Both the position numbers and the translations under genes were made by a program. Positions 3,121-39,158 of a stretch of 64,000 nt of DNA are shown here, piece after piece (position 1 is the first letter of the stretch; every line of letters begins with the position of its first letter). Source of the DNA: Minisyncoccota bacterium (GTDB lineage: Bacteria > Patescibacteriota > Minisyncoccia > Phycocordibacterales > UBA2100). Below the pieces are notes generated by a model. It searched no databases. It was given only the letters and a program-made list of their open reading frames with translations, and was not told the origin of the DNA. The stretch spans positions 264,178 to 328,177 of the forward strand of contig JALHPE010000001.1 of assembly GCA_022842645.1 (NCBI GenBank). Direction: 5' to 3'.

Positions 3121-3160
3121 AAAATTAGGTTCTAGGTGTTAGGGGCTAGGTTTTAGGGAA
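3121..3160 (-). promoter_or_regulatory. conserved G-poor CCTAAAACC-TAGCCCCTAACACC leader motif (rpsL-rpsG intergenic)
   Basis: mRNA-sense TTCCCTAAAACCTAGCCCCTAACACCTAGAACCTAATTTT-ATG. The same about 30-nt motif recurs upstream of nusA and ppa. Confidence 0.5.
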
Positions 3161-19726: not shown

Positions 19727-19731
19727 AGATA

Positions 19732-19759
19732 GCTTGTAGAGTACAGCTTGTAGCTTGTA
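19732..19759 (-). repeat. TACAAGC heptamer repeats (2 tandem plus 1 after a degenerate unit) immediately upstream of the nucleotidyltransferase start
   Basis: mRNA-sense CACTACAAGCTACAAGCTGTACTCTACAAGCTATCT-ATG. Same heptamer family as in the pilin leaders. Confidence 0.6.
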
Positions 19760-19845
19760 GTGGGAAGCCCTGGTTGAATCTAAATTCGTGTACATAAAAA
19801 AGACCCGCCAGAGGTCCGAGAACATGGCGGGTCAGACGTGAAGTC

Positions 19846-24498: not shown

Positions 24499-26001
24499 CT
24501 ACTGTTCACGCCACAACACCAACTTATAATCCGGCGAAGCCGCAGGTGTAAACGGTGGTGGGTCGAACGCAAGCAAGCGATCATAGGTGTCGACGCGCGT
24601 GTTGTAGCCCGAACAGAATGAGCCGCTACAATTCCACTTCGTGCCCACGCGATTGTTTGAAACTACACTTCCGATCGTCGTAAGCGACGACTGTGTCACA
24701 AAGGAGTTATACGCAGACGGGACGCCGTTACTTCCTCCTTGTTGATATAAATTGCGCCCCAGGTAGCCATTCTGTGCAACGAAGACGCCGCGTATGGTCA
24801 TTACATCGGGCGAATTGAGTGGTATCAAAACCGAACGCTCAGCGACAGCCGTGAGCCCCGAAGCGCCCGAAGCAGAAGCGTAGGTAATGTTGTTCGAGAG
24901 AATAATGTCTGGTGAAAAACTTCCGGTGTCTGCCGCAACAATCGTCACTTTTCCGCCCACAACTCCCTCAATCCACACTTTCGCGCGTGCAAAAATTACT
25001 GGGCAATCTGACGGAATCGTGTAGCGTCCGTGATACGTCTGGTTGGAAATAATGTGGTAGTCCGTCACCCACGTACCGATGTTGTCGATACGTTGCGCAA
25101 AGACTCCCGTCGTTCCGGTGACGCGATAAATATCGACGGTGTTGTCGCCGCGAAGCACGATGCGGAATCCGCGCTGGTCGCTGCCGCCGACTGAAGAGAA
25201 CGTGCTTCCCTGTTGAACGCCGTCAACCCGCACCGTTGTTGTGTTGAGCATGATGCCGTCATTCGTCGCATACGTTTGAAGCGCAGGAAAATCGCTCGAG
25301 ATGCCGGCAAAATTAAATGACGCCGCGGGAAACTGCCAGAGCGCAGAGCCACTTCCCGCACCAAAAACGCCCGGGCGATTCTGCGTCGGAGAACATCCAA
25401 ACGATGATGTGCAACTCCATGTGGCAACCGAACTCGAGACAATAGAGTTATTCGTGCCATCCATGCGAATGCCGCCGTTCGAGTGATACGCACCCGTAAT
25501 ATTTCTGTCGGCCCCCGCCCACACGTTCGCATTAATGATATTGGAATATTCAGCGACCGAGGGGCGCATGTAACGTGCCTCCAGTGTACGACGAAAGACG
25601 GTATTCAAATCTGAAACACCTTCAGATACAAGATCCGCTGATTGCACAACACCACATGCAGTATTTAACGTCGCGCTCACTTGAGCGTCTCCCAGTGTTC
25701 CACCCTCGGGATCAACTACTTCATATGACGCGGGGGAAACGAGCCCCGTGCCGTCCACCATAATTTGAGGGTTGTGCGCGAGGAACCATCGATAAAATTC
25801 GAGTCCGCTTTCGGCGACATTCACCGCCTGCTCACGCGCATACAAAGCTCGCCCATAGCGCCCTTGCGTGAGCGTGTAACTTAAAATGGTGCCGAGGAGA
25901 AAGAGGAAGATACCCATGAAGGTGAGAACCAGGATCACGGTCACGCCCCGTTCTGCATGAGAGTTTGTAGTTTGTAGTTTGTAGTTTGTAGTTACATGCA
26001 T
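24499..26001 (-). CDS. large type IV pilin-like / pseudopilin protein (500 aa) with repeat-containing leader peptide
   Basis: Leader MHVTTNYKLQTTNSHAERG, then hydrophobic VTVILVLTFMGIFLFLLG typical of a prepilin N-terminal helix. Leader encoded by CTACAAA x4. Confidence 0.65.
   Translation of the reverse strand: MHVTTNYKLQTTNSHAERGVTVILVLTFMGIFLFLLGTILSYTLTQGRYGRALYAREQAVNVAESGLEFYRWFLAHNPQIMVDGTGLVSPASYEVVDPEGGTLGDAQVSATLNTACGVVQSADLVSEGVSDLNTVFRRTLEARYMRPSVAEYSNIINANVWAGADRNITGAYHSNGGIRMDGTNNSIVSSSVATWSCTSSFGCSPTQNRPGVFGAGSGSALWQFPAASFNFAGISSDFPALQTYATNDGIMLNTTTVRVDGVQQGSTFSSVGGSDQRGFRIVLRGDNTVDIYRVTGTTGVFAQRIDNIGTWVTDYHIISNQTYHGRYTIPSDCPVIFARAKVWIEGVVGGKVTIVAADTGSFSPDIILSNNITYASASGASGLTAVAERSVLIPLNSPDVMTIRGVFVAQNGYLGRNLYQQGGSNGVPSAYNSFVTQSSLTTIGSVVSNNRVGTKWNCSGSFCSGYNTRVDTYDRLLAFDPPPFTPAASPDYKLVLWREQ
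25964..25991 (-). repeat. heptanucleotide tandem repeat CTACAAA x4 (coding sense) inside pilin leader-peptide codons 4-13
   Basis: Plus strand TTTGTAG x4 at 25964-25991. 28 nt is not a multiple of 3, so a one-unit change shifts the frame. Confidence 0.85.
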
Positions 26002-26019: not shown

Positions 26020-26640
26020 CTACCTGAGGTTCCTAAGAGCAGCTGTGGATCTCAGAGTAAATTGATTCGGCATACGATTCGGATTGATGTTGACTATCAC
26101 CGTTGTTTCGACGAAACGCAGTTCAGTAATATCAGAAAGGTCGGTCATGAGGTTGCCATTCAAATCATAATACTTAAAGACATCTGTCGCTTGCTCGACG
26201 TTGCGTACATATTCTGAAAGCTGCGAGATCGTTTCTGGATTGGTATAAACCGGCGGATCGCCCGATGGATCGATGAGTCCGCGATAAAGTGCCCCACCTT
26301 GGATAAAAAATCGCAGTCGCTCGATGAAAGGATCGTCATCGATATCGGCGTAGAACGACATGGAACTCGTGGCAAGCGAAATGATGGGGTATGCGCCGTC
26401 AGAGGCATATGAGGCTTCACGAATTGTTTTCACCATGCCTTCAATACCACGCTGTGCTGATGTAATCGCTGCTGCCTGCTCAACCGTGTACGAGTTTGTG
26501 CGATAAAAATATTGCACCGACGTGGTGATCGCGAGCATGGCCGAGAGTGTGATCGCCACCCACACACTCGCCTCAATTAATGTCATGCCGCGGTTGGCAC
26601 AGTGTGTAGTGTGTAGTGTGTAGTGTGTAGTTTTATGCAT
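26020..26640 (-). CDS. type IV pilin-like protein with repeat-containing leader peptide
   Basis: Leader MHKTTHYTLHTTHCANRG followed by MTLIEASVWVAITLSAML (prepilin cleavage/methylation-type N-terminus). Alternative GTG start at 26667. Confidence 0.7.
   Translation of the reverse strand: MHKTTHYTLHTTHCANRGMTLIEASVWVAITLSAMLAITTSVQYFYRTNSYTVEQAAAITSAQRGIEGMVKTIREASYASDGAYPIISLATSSMSFYADIDDDPFIERLRFFIQGGALYRGLIDPSGDPPVYTNPETISQLSEYVRNVEQATDVFKYYDLNGNLMTDLSDITELRFVETTVIVNINPNRMPNQFTLRSTAALRNLR
26603..26630 (-). repeat. heptanucleotide tandem repeat CTACACA x4 (coding sense) inside pilin leader-peptide codons
   Basis: Plus strand TGTGTAG x4 at 26603-26630. Paralogous to the 25964-25991 repeat; both genes start ATGCAT..AA then heptamers. 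Confidence 0.85.
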
Positions 26641-26666
26641 AAAAGATTTTGAGCGCGCGAGTTTCA

Positions 26667-26687
26667 CTACAAACTACAGTCTACAGA
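26667..26687 (+). repeat. three CTACAxx heptamers in opposite orientation in the pseudopilin-pilin intergenic region (inverted relative to the leader repeats)
   Basis: Plus strand CTACAAA-CTACAGT-CTACAGA at 26667-26687. Forms an imperfect inverted repeat with 26603-26630 flanking the ATG at 26638-26640. Confidence 0.6.
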
Positions 26688-28438
26688 CTGTTGAGTATGA
26701 TTGATAACCTCGATGTTCCCGACACATTCACTTCAGTCGAATTAAATGTTTGATAGCCGCTTGCCGATGCTTCAATAGTGTATGCGTTTCCTCCACCAAC
26801 ACTTCCCGCACTGAGACTGCTCCAAAAAGCGTTGCCGCAGGTGTCGCTCGTACGCGTCACATCAAAGCCGCCGCGCGTAAGGCGCACCGATGCGTTCGGT
26901 ATTACTACCCCCGCACTTGTCTTCACATCAACAAGAAGAGAATTCGTCGTCTGCGGAGAAAGAATGATTCGCGTTGTCTGCGCCGAGTTCGGCGTGAGTG
27001 TTTCCGGCTGCGGTGCACATGCTGAAGAAATATCATATCCACTGGTGTCGGGCACGATCACCGTGTACGCGTCCCACTCAAGATTCTGAATGAGGAGAGA
27101 TCCGGATGCGCCACTCGAATGAGTCGAATCATACTTATAGATGAGCGCCCCGCCAGCGGTGGTGCCGATTGTTTTTGCACCGCGCAGTGTAAACGAAACA
27201 TTCGGAAGCGGATGCGGGCCAGAATCATACGAGAGTCTCCAAGCGTCCACTGACGGCGTCGTCGATGCATTCCCTGTTGTGAGACGCCCGCGCACGACGA
27301 GTCCGGGATAGGTTGACGTTGAAACACCACTCACATTAATCGGTGACATGGTGAACCCGCCACTGTTTCCCGGGAGCTGCGAATCAGAAACGAGCGTTGT
27401 GCCAGAGCTGTCATACAGTTGTATATAGAGAGCGGTGCCACTCGGCGTATTTGCATCCCACGAAAGTGTTTTCCACGCGACAAGCGTCGAGGTTGAAACG
27501 ACGTTTGAAAAGAATGTACCTTCAAAGGGGTATTCGCCCGCCGTCTCGGTGAGCGCCACAATGCCTCCTGCAATCGTGACGTTTGATGTCGATGCAGTTC
27601 CTGCACCACCTGAAAATGTTTCCGTTGTCGTTGCGGTTGTGACCGGCGTGTATGTTTCAATGCGCTTTTCTGAAACGCGATCAATCGCAAAGGTTCCCGC
27701 AGTCGTGGTATCGAGCGCGACGGCAAGATGCGCAGGGATAGGATTCGTATTCGTTGCGTTTGCGGCATAGGTACGCGCAGTGGAGTAACCAGTTTTCGTA
27801 ACAGTAATCTGATAGCCGGCTCCTGGAGGCACACCTAAAATAGTTGCCTTGCCGTTTTCGTCAGTGAAACGCGTGAGATCAATCGTGGGAACGAGCGTGG
27901 TATTCACGACTTCCACCTCTGCGTTTGAAACAGGAAGAAGTGCGGCGTCCACCACTTCAATTGCAAGAACACCGCCCGGCACCGAGGCTTCAATTCCCGG
28001 AGGAGAAACGCGTGTGAGGAGTTCAATAGTGTGCACACCATCGCGCCCATTCCACGAAACTTGCGACTTCACCGCTTTGTAATCCGTTTCAATGCCATTT
28101 TCATCTGCACCACCAAGTCCATCCGCCGGATCATCTTCGTAGGAAATAAAAGTTCGGCGCGTGTAGGGCACATCATTGAGTTCGATACTTTCAACTTGTG
28201 CGAGCGCACCCGCAGGAATGCCACCAGCAGTCCCGACCGCGTTATAAGAAAGTGAACGAATGAATTCGAGTCGCTCGTTTGCAAGTGCAATCGCTCCCGC
28301 CCGCGCCTTGTTATTCCCCACCGCCATCACAGTCAAACGAAATGCGCCGGCAATACCGACAAACACCACAAGCATGAGCGCAGTGCCCACCACCGCATCA
28401 AGTAGCGTCGAACCTCGTTCCCCGCGAGGAAACCACAT
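26681..28438 (-). CDS. large pseudopilin-like protein (about 586 aa)
   Basis: Short leader MWFPRGERG then STLLDAVVGTALMLVVFVGIAG hydrophobic helix. Start placed at Met19, which leaves the 28455-28482 terminator hairpin outside the gene. TACAAT 8 nt upstream of this ATG. Confidence 0.65.
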   Translation of the reverse strand: MWFPRGERGSTLLDAVVGTALMLVVFVGIAGAFRLTVMAVGNNKARAGAIALANERLEFIRSLSYNAVGTAGGIPAGALAQVESIELNDVPYTRRTFISYEDDPADGLGGADENGIETDYKAVKSQVSWNGRDGVHTIELLTRVSPPGIEASVPGGVLAIEVVDAALLPVSNAEVEVVNTTLVPTIDLTRFTDENGKATILGVPPGAGYQITVTKTGYSTARTYAANATNTNPIPAHLAVALDTTTAGTFAIDRVSEKRIETYTPVTTATTTETFSGGAGTASTSNVTIAGGIVALTETAGEYPFEGTFFSNVVSTSTLVAWKTLSWDANTPSGTALYIQLYDSSGTTLVSDSQLPGNSGGFTMSPINVSGVSTSTYPGLVVRGRLTTGNASTTPSVDAWRLSYDSGPHPLPNVSFTLRGAKTIGTTAGGALIYKYDSTHSSGASGSLLIQNLEWDAYTVIVPDTSGYDISSACAPQPETLTPNSAQTTRIILSPQTTNSLLVDVKTSAGVVIPNASVRLTRGGFDVTRTSDTCGNAFWSSLSAGSVGGGNAYTIEASASGYQTFNSTEVNVSGTSRLSIILNSL

Positions 28439-32574: not shown

Positions 32575-32736
32575 ATGCTCGTCGAGAAGTTTGCTGAGTC
32601 CTTCGTAATAGCAGTGTGCGCACACTTCGACGTCATCAACGCGATGATGTTCCCCATCGACACGAGGACCAAGTGGCGCACCACATGTACAGGTACGCGA
32701 TTCTGCGTCCACGCGAGACTCCTTTCACATACTTGA
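32575..32736 (+). CDS. possible small Cys/His-rich protein (53 aa)
   Basis: ORF MLVEKFAESFVIAVCAHFDV...CTGTRFCVHARL followed by terminator hairpin GTCCGGC-CGAAA-GCCGGAC plus TTTTTA at about 32792-32817. Weak call. Confidence 0.25.
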   Translation: MLVEKFAESFVIAVCAHFDVINAMMFPIDTRTKWRTTCTGTRFCVHARLLSHT

Positions 32737-32823
32737 CACAACGCCCCCCGCGAATATACTACCTCTATAGCTGAATACAGCAATGTAGTCAGTCCGGCCG
32801 AAAGCCGGACGTTTTTAATAAAT

Positions 32824-32861
32824 TACTAACACCTAAAACTTAGCCCCTAACACCTAATCCT
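32824..32861 (+). promoter_or_regulatory. conserved G-poor leader motif ACTAACACCTAAAACTTAGCCCCTAACACCTAATCCT before nusA ATG
   Basis: Shares CCTAAAAC and TAGCCCCTAACACCTA blocks with the rpsG and ppa upstream regions. No SD. Confidence 0.5.
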
Positions 32862-34432: not shown

Positions 34433-34484
34433 GTCGTGCAGATACATATTTGGACACACATAAAACAGTACGCTACACTCCCCG

Positions 34485-34519
34485 CATTACCTAACACCTA
34501 GCCCCTAAAACCTCATTGT
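34485..34519 (+). promoter_or_regulatory. conserved G-poor leader motif CATTACCTAACACCTAGCCCCTAAAACCTCATTGT before ppa ATG
   Basis: Third copy of the CCTAACACC / TAGCCCCTAAAACC motif family. Confidence 0.5.
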
Positions 34520-35933: not shown

Positions 35934-35979
35934 CGCCATCTATTTTCTAATATCTACCATCTAATATCTTCCCCTCCTT

Positions 35980-36366
35980 ATGGACCCCCTCACTCAAAAT
36001 CAAAACCCCATCACAACCGGTAGTCAGATGCCGCCGCAGATGCCAAGTTCAGAACCTGAGCGTTCTCCCATGGGCCCAGTTGCAGGCGCTGTGATTGTTA
36101 TCGTACTCCTCGTCGCAGGTGGCCTCTACTTCTATGGCGCAAAACTCAATCGAGAAACCATGATGAAAAACAACGCACCGTACATACCATCGGACACAAT
36201 GATGGAAGAAACATCGATAATGCCTACTGAAGCATCGATGGATACCATGGTCGGCCTTCCTTCACAAAGCAGTTCCGATGACGTCTCTTCCATTGAAGCA
36301 GATCTGAATGCAATGGATATGGGTGCAATCGAATCCTCAAACCAGGCTGAACTGAATAATCTCTAA
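35980..36366 (+). CDS. hypothetical membrane protein (128 aa)
   Basis: Pro/Ser-rich N-terminus, one TM helix (GAVIVIVLLVAGGLYFYG). Confidence 0.5.
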   Translation: MDPLTQNQNPITTGSQMPPQMPSSEPERSPMGPVAGAVIVIVLLVAGGLYFYGAKLNRETMMKNNAPYIPSDTMMEETSIMPTEASMDTMVGLPSQSSSDDVSSIEADLNAMDMGAIESSNQAELNNL

Positions 36367-37503: not shown

Positions 37504-38213
37504 GTTACCTGCTCGAATTTTCCGATAATTCTCTCTATCCCTTCAGTGGAATTCCGGCACAGCGCTAGAACATCTACGTTTTCTCCCTCGAGAAAGAACG
37601 ATACTTTTATTTCAACTCTCGGCTTTAAATTAGTATCTATTTCTCCCTCGATTCCTTTGTTGGTTAGATAAAAATGATTGAAGGAATTCCCGTTATCATC
37701 AACATTTCTCATGGTAGTGGTTCCTGAGTGTAGAGTTAGCCTTAAAGCCTGTCCGAGAAATACAGTAGCGTCTTGCCTTCTACTTTGTGCCAATAATTTA
37801 CGATGCCCCAAATTCGAATACTTTCGTAGAAGAGAAATCCAAGCGTTCTCAGGATGATACGGCTGCGCTTCCTCAATAATTTTGAATGCTGCCAAATCTC
37901 GCCCCTTCAAATCATTCATACCAAATTGGCCAACCAAACTTCGCAATTCTTGTAGATTTTTACAGACTGGAAACTGAACCTTGTGTTTCTTCCCTTCAAA
38001 ATCTTGAAGGGTTAATTGTGATCGAATTTTATTATCAAAATAGTTAAAGATCACCTGATCAAGAAGGCGGTTTAACAGTGTTATTACAACTTGTGTCGTA
38101 TTTCTCGCTTCATCTGATACTAAAGTTTCGGTTTCTTTATGCTGGTTACATAAAGCAATAAGATTGAGTAATTGACGATTGATGTATTCGAGTTGGATTT
38201 TAATTTCGCTCAT
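37500..38213 (-). CDS. hypothetical protein, AT-rich, with RKYSNLGH (Rx6H) HEPN-like motif; candidate horizontally acquired gene
   Basis: Antisense ORF between tig and clpP. Its stop codon overlaps the tig stop codon. Visibly lower GC than flanks. No confident domain. Confidence 0.5.
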
Positions 38214-38304
38214 AGGATTCAGTTCGTGGGCATTAAAGTATAAGTTGCAGTCACACACACTTCAACATGGCATCCAAAAACTCCTCGTGCTACCATCCCC
38301 GCAT

Positions 38305-38904
38305 ATGAAAAACACACCCATAACCGCACAAATGTTAGTCCCGATGGTCGTTGAGAAAACCACCATGGGCGAGCGCGCCTATGACATCTACTCCCGCCTT
38401 CTGAAAGAGCGCATTGTCTTTCTTGGCGGCCCGATTGACGACCACGTGGCGAATCTCGTGATCGCTCAGCTCCTTTTCTTAGCAAGCGAAGATCCAAAGA
38501 AAGATATTTCTTTCTATATCAATTCCCCTGGTGGACACGTCTCGTCCGGCCTCGCGATCGTAGACACCATGAATCATATCCAGCCGGATGTCTCGACTGT
38601 GTGCGTTGGTATGGCGGCCTCCATGGGTGCGGTACTTCTCTCAGCGGGTAAAAAGGGCAAACGCTTCGCGCTTCCGAATGCCGAAGTGATGATTCACCAA
38701 CCTTCAGGCGGTGCAGAAGGCCAGGCGTCCGATATCGCGATAACCGCGAAGCACATACTTGCAACACGTGAGCGCTTGAACAAAATTCTTGCGAAAAATA
38801 CCGGACAGTCAGTTAAAAAGATCGAAACTGACGTCGATCGCGACTTCTTTATGACCGCCGACGAAGCAAAAACCTACGGCGTCATTGACAAAGTGCTCGA
38901 ATAG
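38305..38904 (+). CDS. clpP: ATP-dependent Clp protease proteolytic subunit
   Basis: [33 protein letters not shown] and catalytic Ser/His/Asp context ([11 protein letters not shown]). Start is either 38305 or 38332; the track start at 38179 overlaps the antisense gene. Confidence 0.9.
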
Positions 38905-39158
38905 TTGGACAGGTTACAGGTTTTAGGGTTTAGTTTTTAGAGGCTTTTGTTTTATGGCTTATATAAAGGTTATTCCCAGAACCTACCGCCCATTCCCTAC
39001 AACCTAGTGAGGTGCTATAGTGCATGTACACCTTACCATTTATGTCACTTTACACCGCGCACCTCTCTATCAAAGCGCACTCTAACCGTGTCTTTCTATC
39101 AATGAACTCTGTCACACGAATGCAGGCGTACTAGAGGCGCGTGGTTAAATCCACGCAT

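Follow-up and report, generated by a model that had tools for sequence, protein, structure and literature searches.

Degenerate tandem heptamer arrays precede start codons that lack a Shine-Dalgarno sequence in a Minisyncoccota genome

What precedes the start codons of rpsG, nusA and ppa where a Shine-Dalgarno (SD) sequence would be expected is the question raised by a 64,000-nt stretch of DNA from a Minisyncoccota bacterium (GenBank assembly GCA_022842645.1, contig JALHPE010000001.1, positions 264,178 to 328,177), here termed the window. An earlier note on this DNA had described a motif of about 30 nt, ordered in its parts and poor in G, that is shared by the three leaders. The strings that it quoted were all found as given, with a 1-nt offset at nusA (where the string begins at 32825, not 32824), and the sharing itself proved to be real. 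A 25-nt module, CCTAAAACCTAGCCCCTAACACCTA, was located at 3133-3157 of the minus strand (rpsG), 32832-32856 of the plus strand (nusA) and 34490-34514 of the plus strand (ppa) with 0, 1 and 3 mismatches, respectively, a triple occurrence for which shuffled sequences gave an expectation of 0.00. Likewise, CCTANNNCCTA was detected 8 times in the window compared to 0.45 expected, with all eight occurrences at rpsG, nusA, ppa or upstream of rny. The weaker copy reported 5' of rny (38983-39006) and the inverted copy 3' of clpP (38917-38940) are both real. By contrast, the fixed order did not stand. The leader element was found to be a degenerate tandem array of heptamers with units shuffled between copies, a 7-nt period that had been overlooked.

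The 7-nt period was apparent by several counts. Runs of at least three CTA triplets at exact 7-nt spacing were found 7 times in the window versus 0.58 times in shuffled sequences, with none at periods of 4-6 and 8-11 nt, and the pattern CTA(N4)CTA(N4)CTA with at most one mismatch was found 32 times versus 4.4 expected. When all triplets at periods of 5-9 nt were screened without bias, CTA at period 7 ranked top both within the window and across 977 kb of related loci (designated by L numbers). Tandem Repeats Finder (TRF) independently reported period-7 arrays in the window; it gave the rpsG array match rates of 69% (period 7) and 92% (period 14), and the nusA and ppa arrays were too degenerate for this program. 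The consensus from 73 units is [A/C][C/A]CTA[A/G/T][T/A/C] (short form, CCTANNN), with CTA constant, the 4-nt spacers variable and an overall G content of 7%. About 10 arrays were counted in the window, most of them on the sense strand and ending 3-16 nt before an ATG. The register to the start codon is tight: in 11 of 16 arrays, the distance from the start of the last in-phase CTA to the ATG is 6-10 nt (mode 8), and in three further arrays it is 15 nt (8+7). Provision of stop codons in all three frames was rejected as the purpose of the arrays, as TAA or TAG is present in only 52 of the 73 units and is missing from the CTAC and CTAT units. Some units read CCCTAAA (window 3147-3160 and 34503-34512, and the arrays of L059 and L060) and are thus complementary to the plant-type telomere repeat TTTAGGG, the telo-box core; this resemblance is taken to be a coincidence in a bacterial genome.

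Placement of the arrays was non-random, on the sense strand and 5' of start codons in RNA predicted to be unstructured, and did not resemble that of repetitive extragenic palindromic (REP) elements. Palindrome features of REP or bacterial interspersed mosaic element (BIME) type were not found in the leaders, which displayed a sense bias, a 5' location and a minimum free energy (MFE) of 0 to -1.2 kcal/mol. One copy lies within the rpsL-rpsG operon, as the earlier note had stated, and occupies the spacer between genes matching Pfam S12 (rpsL) and Pfam S7 (rpsG). Enrichment at ribosomal or translation genes, which that note had raised, was not found: arrays were also present at ppa, a nucleotidyltransferase gene (NTase), a 128-aa open reading frame (ORF; orf128) and two pseudopilin-like genes, and rpsL, tig, pnp and cca were without arrays. 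The array-preceded genes of the window (rpsG, nusA, ppa, NTase, the pseudopilins and orf128) share no function.

The leaders were examined for an SD and for RNA properties that may bear on initiation. No SD was detected (no GGAG, GAGG or AGGA at -18 to -6) upstream of rpsG, nusA, ppa, orf128 or NTase. Five leaders were found to be G-poor, with 0-4 G in the 40 nt upstream (1-3 in rpsG, nusA and ppa; 0 in orf128), and G was depleted even where the unit sequence is free to vary (16 of 219 positions compared to 23% in other upstream regions, p ~9e-10). Start-like triplets (AUG, GUG or UUG) occurred at 1 per 200 nt in the five leaders versus 8.9 per 200 nt in other upstream regions. The region from -40 to +20 of rpsG, nusA, ppa and orf128 was predicted to be unstructured, with an MFE of -1.2 to -2.6 kcal/mol compared to -12.0 +/- 4.8 kcal/mol for background 60-mers, only 1.8% of which were as open, and to -6.8 to -18.1 kcal/mol for starts led by an SD. 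By predicted MFE, these four leaders correspond to structure-free, non-SD initiation regions (Scharff 2011). Pairing of the arrays with the anti-SD was rejected, as the arrays resemble the 16S rRNA 3' tail (CACCU...) instead of complementing it. The anti-SD was judged canonical because other genes use SDs (the 16S rRNA gene lies outside the window).

The statement that the motif stands 'instead of a Shine-Dalgarno' was correct as to absence but needs to be set against the genome as a whole, in which SD-less starts are the rule. At least 7 other genes of the window, about 10% of the ORFs, are preceded by AGGAG at a distance of 7-9 nt. A TANNNT box ending 6 nt before ATG or GTG was observed in 17 cases versus about 2 at other offsets, and a TANNNT box 5-9 nt upstream was present in about 25 of 67 ORFs, which suggests that about a third of the 67 may be leaderless; the ORFs were called by a greedy and noisy procedure, and such gene-level fractions are approximate. 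Apparent leaderless starts include those at 28438(-), 24024(-), 47310(-), 46350(-), 13921(-), 48102(-) and 63057(+), as well as 6471(+), 50348(-), 5998(-), 8935(-), 4392(-), 36430(+) and 55713(+). The nusA array and the ppa array each have a predicted promoter on the 5' side and should therefore be transcribed as part of 5' untranslated regions (UTRs).

The arrays were also compared among relatives. The source organism is related to Candidatus Kaiserbacteria. NusA relatives at 80-86% identity belong to metagenome-assembled genomes of Candidatus Kaiserbacteria and other Parcubacteria (Paceibacterota). The same DNA was found in three Logan assemblies, with nusA and ppa leaders identical, and thus the arrays are not an assembly artefact. 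Tandem arrays of at least 3 copies were counted in a 1.04-Mb Parcubacteria set composed of the window and the 977 kb of related loci. By this approach, 7 nt was found to be the commonest tandem period (47 arrays), with 30 of the 47 arrays start-adjacent and 2 deep in ORFs. Arrays of period 6, 9 and 12 were mainly within ORFs; period 7 alone was mostly non-coding and start-adjacent. In a separate 362 kb of rpsG loci, period 7 was again the commonest and its association with starts was weaker. An autocorrelation peak at lag 7 (and lag 14) was detected at -42 to -1 of nusA, ppa and pilB and was absent in coding sequence. Orientation was biased, with 12 sense versus 2 antisense arrays (p = 0.013), and several unclassified or 'antisense' cases were scoring artefacts.

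Heptamer units were found to be common to unrelated leaders within one genome and different between genomes. Such sharing was observed for rpsG, nusA and ppa of the window, for nusA and pilB of L009 (CCTAACACCTAGTCCCTAT), and for nusA and site 749 of L059; none of the other species carries the module of the window. Other heptamers occupy the same genes elsewhere, including GACTTTC x5 before pilB (L069, 6558-6592), CAAACCT before pilB (L053, 1303-1342), TGTTCAC/TGTACAC before ppa (L019) and TTCAAAT before rpsG (L128). Across Parcubacteria, the 7-nt period extends more widely than the CTA core. Further start-adjacent heptamers were noted at L018 8356-8379 and upstream of rpsG in L119 (GCTGCAA and GCTGTAA/GCTGATA). 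The ppa array was kept in genomes with Ppa proteins 61-73% identical (window, L038, L059, L060 and L063). In other relatives, ppa has TACACT 7-9 nt before its ATG (L007, L010, L011, L016 and L017) and pilB has TATAAT at the same distance (L004, L007, L018, L020 and L025), both of these leaderless in appearance. An array was seen by eye between a -10 box and the ATG at ppa of the window (34474-34519) and at pilB of L009 (5925-5983) and L016. This arrangement suggests that insertion or expansion of an array may have turned leaderless genes into leadered, SD-less ones; the comparison was read by eye, and MAFFT left the -10 box of the window ppa unaligned with those of its relatives.

Several described systems resemble these arrays in part. 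The closest are the TAACTGA heptamers of marine Beggiatoaceae, some Cyanobacteria and Bacteroidetes, which occur in 2-6 tandem copies mostly a few nt before start codons (MacGregor 2015, PMC4679880). These usually lack an SD, are present inside ribosomal protein operons, precede genes without a common function, and have been proposed to act in translation (PMC4679880). The arrays of the window are the same kind of element in a different sequence family: they are tandem 7-nt direct repeats, lie a few nt before start codons over the expected ribosome binding site without an SD (6-10 nt in 11 of 16 arrays, and start-adjacent in 30 of 47), fill an intercistronic spacer of a ribosomal protein operon (rpsL-rpsG), and precede genes that share no function. 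Unlike TAACTGA, the units are CCTANNN (or GACTTTC, CAAACCT, TGTACAC and TTCAAAT in other Parcubacteria), are degenerate with only CTA fixed, and form genome-specific modules common to several leaders; in addition, the lineage belongs to the candidate phyla radiation (CPR) and the genome is rich in leaderless genes.

The (ATCTTTC)n repeats of hmw (PMC12721329) are also heptamers of a 5' UTR (predicted, for the arrays described here) and have a repeat arm that pairs with a complementary arm, comparable to the hairpin predicted at 26600-26690 and to the inverted copy at clpP. They differ in having at least 11 perfect units, in being phase-variable, in controlling an adhesin and in their need for RNase III (PMC12721329), whereas at rpsG, nusA and ppa the units number 4-5 and are degenerate, the arrays are free of hairpins, and the genes that follow have housekeeping roles. 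Non-SD regions and standby tails (PMC3121790, PMC5934652) likewise have no SD and place the start in a predicted structure-free stretch. Those are compositional, without repeat or phase, by contrast to phased heptamers with an invariant triplet. The HutP site of Bacillus, (XAG-N4)x3 (PMC2425495), has a fixed triplet, non-conserved spacers and the same 7-nt period. Unlike the HutP sites, which are terminator/antiterminator leaders of single operons read by a known ring protein, the arrays have CUA as the fixed triplet (CUAG in only 20 of 73 units) and are not inside terminator hairpins. TRAP of Bacillus is also a ring protein and reads (G/U)AG-N2-3 triplet-repeat RNA sites in terminator/antiterminator leaders of single operons. 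The omega leader of tobacco mosaic virus (TMV) and CA multimers are G-less, CA-rich, unstructured leaders built of repeats that promote SD-independent translation; they are viral or synthetic, with other units and no 7-nt CUA phase. Tandem heptamer repeats are known too as the short tandemly repeated repetitive (STRR) sequences of cyanobacteria. An excess of heptanucleotide long simple sequence repeats in intergenic DNA is described by Mrazek 2007, as summarized in PMC4679880, and in PMC4692102; these, like the STRR sequences, have other units and are often long and perfect, and no tight start-codon register has been reported for them. A search of the literature on SD and leaderless initiation in Patescibacteria and Parcubacteria returned nothing relevant, no search having been aimed at heptamer repeats in these lineages.

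Taken together, these results are interpreted, with about even confidence, as evidence that the arrays are slippage-born heptamer leaders that serve as structure-free, SD-independent initiation regions before a subset of genes. Replication slippage, or the copying of a genome-specific module, would create and lengthen arrays in the interval from a promoter or upstream stop codon to the ATG, and in this way several leaderless genes would have become leadered. They would be retained since the RNA makes a good SD-independent initiation region, G-poor, non-folding and nearly free of AUG, GUG and UUG, in which the ribosome would land on an open single strand that holds the first start codon, possibly with the aid of S1 or another single-strand RNA-binding protein. 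In this manner the arrays may promote, or simply permit, translation initiation. A landing zone of this type is consistent with the reliance of non-SD genes on a local absence of structure (PMC3121790) and with the use of unstructured 5' tails as ribosome standby sites (PMC5934652).

A number of observations weigh against this interpretation. Openness and depletion of G do not account for the constancy of CTA, the strict 7-nt phase or the genome-specific shared modules, and the near-identical 25-nt module in three unrelated leaders, with like sharing in L009 and L059, hints at sequence-specific recognition or copying. The NTase leader is less open (-8.6 kcal/mol), and the two perfect arrays at the pseudopilin-like genes may be coding. 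Not every array adjoins a start codon; exceptions are the array of rny, the inverted copies, L037 and L059 site 749. The nusA array is patchy among relatives of 80-86% identity, and arrays are therefore dispensable at this gene. The rpsL-rpsG array was not seen among the metagenome relatives recovered, none of which exceeds 67% identity; in the best of these (50-67% identical), the spacer was mostly very short and AT-rich, with a few carrying other heptamers (L119 and L128). Finally, the promoters and RNA structures are predictions.

The main rival, which we consider fairly unlikely, is that the arrays are multivalent sites for a sequence-specific single-strand RNA-binding protein or ribosome-associated factor. 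Such a factor would read CUA every 7 nt, each heptamer being contacted by a single subunit or domain, and would control translation of a post-transcriptional regulon either positively or negatively, with the units co-evolving in each genome. This explanation is kept alive by the invariant CUA with its variable 4-nt spacers, the phase of exactly 7 nt and the genome-specific modules common to unrelated leaders, and is further favored by the presence of other heptamers (GACTTTC, CAAACCT, TGTTCAC and TTCAAAT) at the same genes in other lineages. Precedent is provided by the HutP hexamer, which reads XAG triplets separated by 4-nt sequence-independent spacers (PMC2425495), and by CspB, which binds one heptamer per protein; S1, Csp and CsrA have been proposed for the TAACTGA repeats (PMC4679880). 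However, no candidate protein was identified (a cold-shock protein gene was not found in the window or the nusA loci, which is no guide to the whole genome), the genes concerned lack a common functional theme, and arrays were gained and lost among close relatives. Moreover, the invariance of CTA is partly circular, in that arrays were found by CTA phasing, though the unbiased triplet screen also yields CTA. A bolder form of the same idea, distinctly unlikely by our estimate, is that the CUA-phased heptamers and those of other lineages would be a genuine alternative signal for ribosome recruitment or translational control in CPR bacteria, read per heptamer by a dedicated factor or ribosomal component, with the unit co-evolving and the module copied and pasted into formerly leaderless genes. 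That the arrays are instead neutral by-products of heptamer-biased slippage, tolerated where harmless, with position and orientation reflecting the birth site (e.g., a duplicated CTANNNT -10 box), is disfavoured and in our judgment unlikely. Heptanucleotides are described as the most abundant class of long simple sequence repeats in many prokaryotes, with polymerase slippage proposed (Mrazek 2007, as relayed in PMC4679880); arrays come and go among relatives, several -10 boxes of the window read (TG)CTANNNT and are unit-like, and perfect arrays exist. A purely neutral origin is difficult to reconcile with the depletion of G at independently varying unit positions, the strong sense-strand bias, the presence of arrays where no -10 box could have been duplicated (the rpsL-rpsG spacer, and 3' of the putative nusA attenuator), and the upkeep of arrays before essential genes and before ppa in the divergent genomes noted above.

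Contingency repeats, in which copy number would switch or tune expression as for hmw (ATCTTTC)n of Haemophilus influenzae, are very unlikely to be a general explanation. The two perfect arrays at the 5' ends of pseudopilin-like genes are possibly in frame in leader peptides, and for one of them (26600-26631) pairing with an inverted copy upstream is predicted, which recalls the hmw hairpin (PMC12721329). By contrast, the rpsG, nusA and ppa arrays precede housekeeping genes and are degenerate (69-92% matches), which suppresses slippage, and the nusA and ppa leaders were identical in three independent assemblies. A slippage-prone perfect tract was found only at the two pseudopilin arrays, not at rpsG, nusA or ppa, and only for those two is phase variation plausible. 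An action at the level of DNA or transcription is most improbable, whether the arrays were to serve as promoter or UP-like elements, to cause sigma-dependent pausing or to load Rho at C-rich (rut) sites. The units do resemble -10 hexamers (TANNNN), and the RNA is C-rich, G-poor and unstructured as in rut sites. Nevertheless, the units end in C or A at the key -7 T position of a -10 box, the arrays of nusA and ppa already have strong -35/-10 pairs on their 5' side, and that of rpsG is internal to an operon; a promoter element, an option offered by the earlier note, is therefore unlikely. In addition, the 7-bp period differs from the helical repeat of DNA, the arrays (30-40 nt) are short for rut, and their close register to the ATG, at 6-10 nt, argues for a role in translation.

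Accounts of start-proximal heptamers have so far centered on TAACTGA in a few lineages, and bear on how leadered mRNAs without an SD are translated. That such an arrangement recurs with other units across Parcubacteria suggests something more general, namely the use of 7-nt building blocks for leaders in SD-sparse genomes. The arrays are compact, testable elements of 30-40 nt before essential genes such as rpsG and ppa, and would mark genes switched between leaderless and leadered expression. They also matter for annotation, as gene callers tuned to SDs will misplace starts beside arrays; for example, the longest frame of ORF 24499-26001 crosses an array. A scan for G-poor windows was too unspecific (127 matches) and was superseded by the period scans. 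Rfam 15 at gathering threshold yielded only four tRNAs in the window and nothing in L009, L016, L037 and L059.

Positions of the heptamer arrays and associated features in the window (strand as read for the array or feature).
Feature	Position	Strand	Description
rpsG array	3121-3160	-	Whole 40-nt rpsL-rpsG intercistronic spacer, from rpsL stop to rpsG ATG (3120)
rpsG array units	3121-3160	-	Five in-phase units, CCTAAAA CCTAGCC CCTAACA CCTAGAA CCTAATT, then TT-ATG; last CTA 8 nt before ATG
NTP_transferase gene (NTase) array	19727-19767	-	CTACAAG CTACAAG CTGTACT CTACAAG CTATCT, then ATG 19726
Pseudopilin array 1	25961-25993	-	Perfect (ACTACAA) x4.6; begins 9 nt after ATG 26001
Pseudopilin array 2	26600-26631	-	Perfect (ACTACAC) x4.4; ATG 26640
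Inverted copy at pseudopilin array 2	26666-26690	+	Minus-strand RNA reads CTGTAGACTGTAGTTTGTAGT
Predicted nusA promoter	32733-32760	+	TTGACA-16-TATACT, 11/12 matches
Terminator-like hairpin	32792-32817	+	GC-rich GTCCGGCcgaaaGCCGGAC and T-run, between nusA promoter and array
nusA array	32825-32861	+	ACTAACA CCTAAAA CTTAGCC CCTAACA CCTAATC CT-ATG; last CTA 8 nt before ATG 32862
Predicted ppa promoter	34451-34479	+	TGGACA-17-TACACT, just 5' of ppa array
ppa array	34485-34519	+	CCTAACA CCTAGCC CCTAAAA CCTCATT GT-ATG (ATG 34520); nearly entire predicted 5' UTR; pyrophosphatase Pfam match
128-aa ORF (orf128) array	35938-35979	+	ATCTATT TTCTAAT ATCTACC ATCTAAT ATCTTCC CCTCCTT, then ATG of ORF 35980-36366
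Inverted array 3' of clpP	38905-38945	-	Minus strand, CTAAAAA CTAAACC CTAAAAC CTGTAAC C; directly after clpP (Clp protease Pfam match)
Weaker rny array	38975-39012	+	CCCAGAA CCTACCG CCCATTC CCTACAA CCTAGTG; RNase Y Pfam match downstream

NusA domains were found in the product encoded downstream of the nusA array. The terminator-like hairpin that separates this array from its predicted promoter is conserved in position in Kaiserbacteria relatives (L005-L026), even in those without a heptamer array. It is probably a nusA attenuator and not part of the array, and possibly serves NusA autoregulation.

The two pseudopilin arrays are 100% matches at the 5' ends of adjacent pseudopilin-like genes. 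When read from ATG 26001, the array at 25961-25993 would encode part of a prepilin-like leader peptide, MHVTTNYKLQTTNSHAERG followed by VTV..., and the array at 26600-26631 would be in frame from ATG 26640 with a similar prepilin-like leader peptide, MHKTTHYTLHTTHCANRG followed by MTLIE. Because gain or loss of one unit would shift the frame, these genes are candidate phase-variable pilins. The second array and its inverted copy were predicted to form a long hairpin (-34.5 kcal/mol, z = -2.83). Both inverted copies in the window lie directly 3' of the preceding gene. A CCCTAAA-type array without a following start codon was also noted at L059 720-790 and L060 720-752, where the 3' end of an opposite-strand gene, next to the array, has a short complementary stretch, GGGTTTAGG; thus, arrays can form part of intergenic hairpins.

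The rny array lies about 130-150 nt 5' of rny and hence is not start-adjacent. Predicted pairing of this array with the inverted copy at clpP was weak (z = -1.86) and supports no claim. The clpP-rny spacer (38905-39158) is unusually long at about 250 nt and includes the inverted array, an AT-rich stretch and the sense array, together with a stable hairpin at about 39007-39036 and a possible 38-codon ORF from 39025. Within the clpP ORF, 38182-38904(+), the Clp protease domain starts only at residue 63 of the longest frame, and the true start is probably an internal ATG at about 38305 or 38332.

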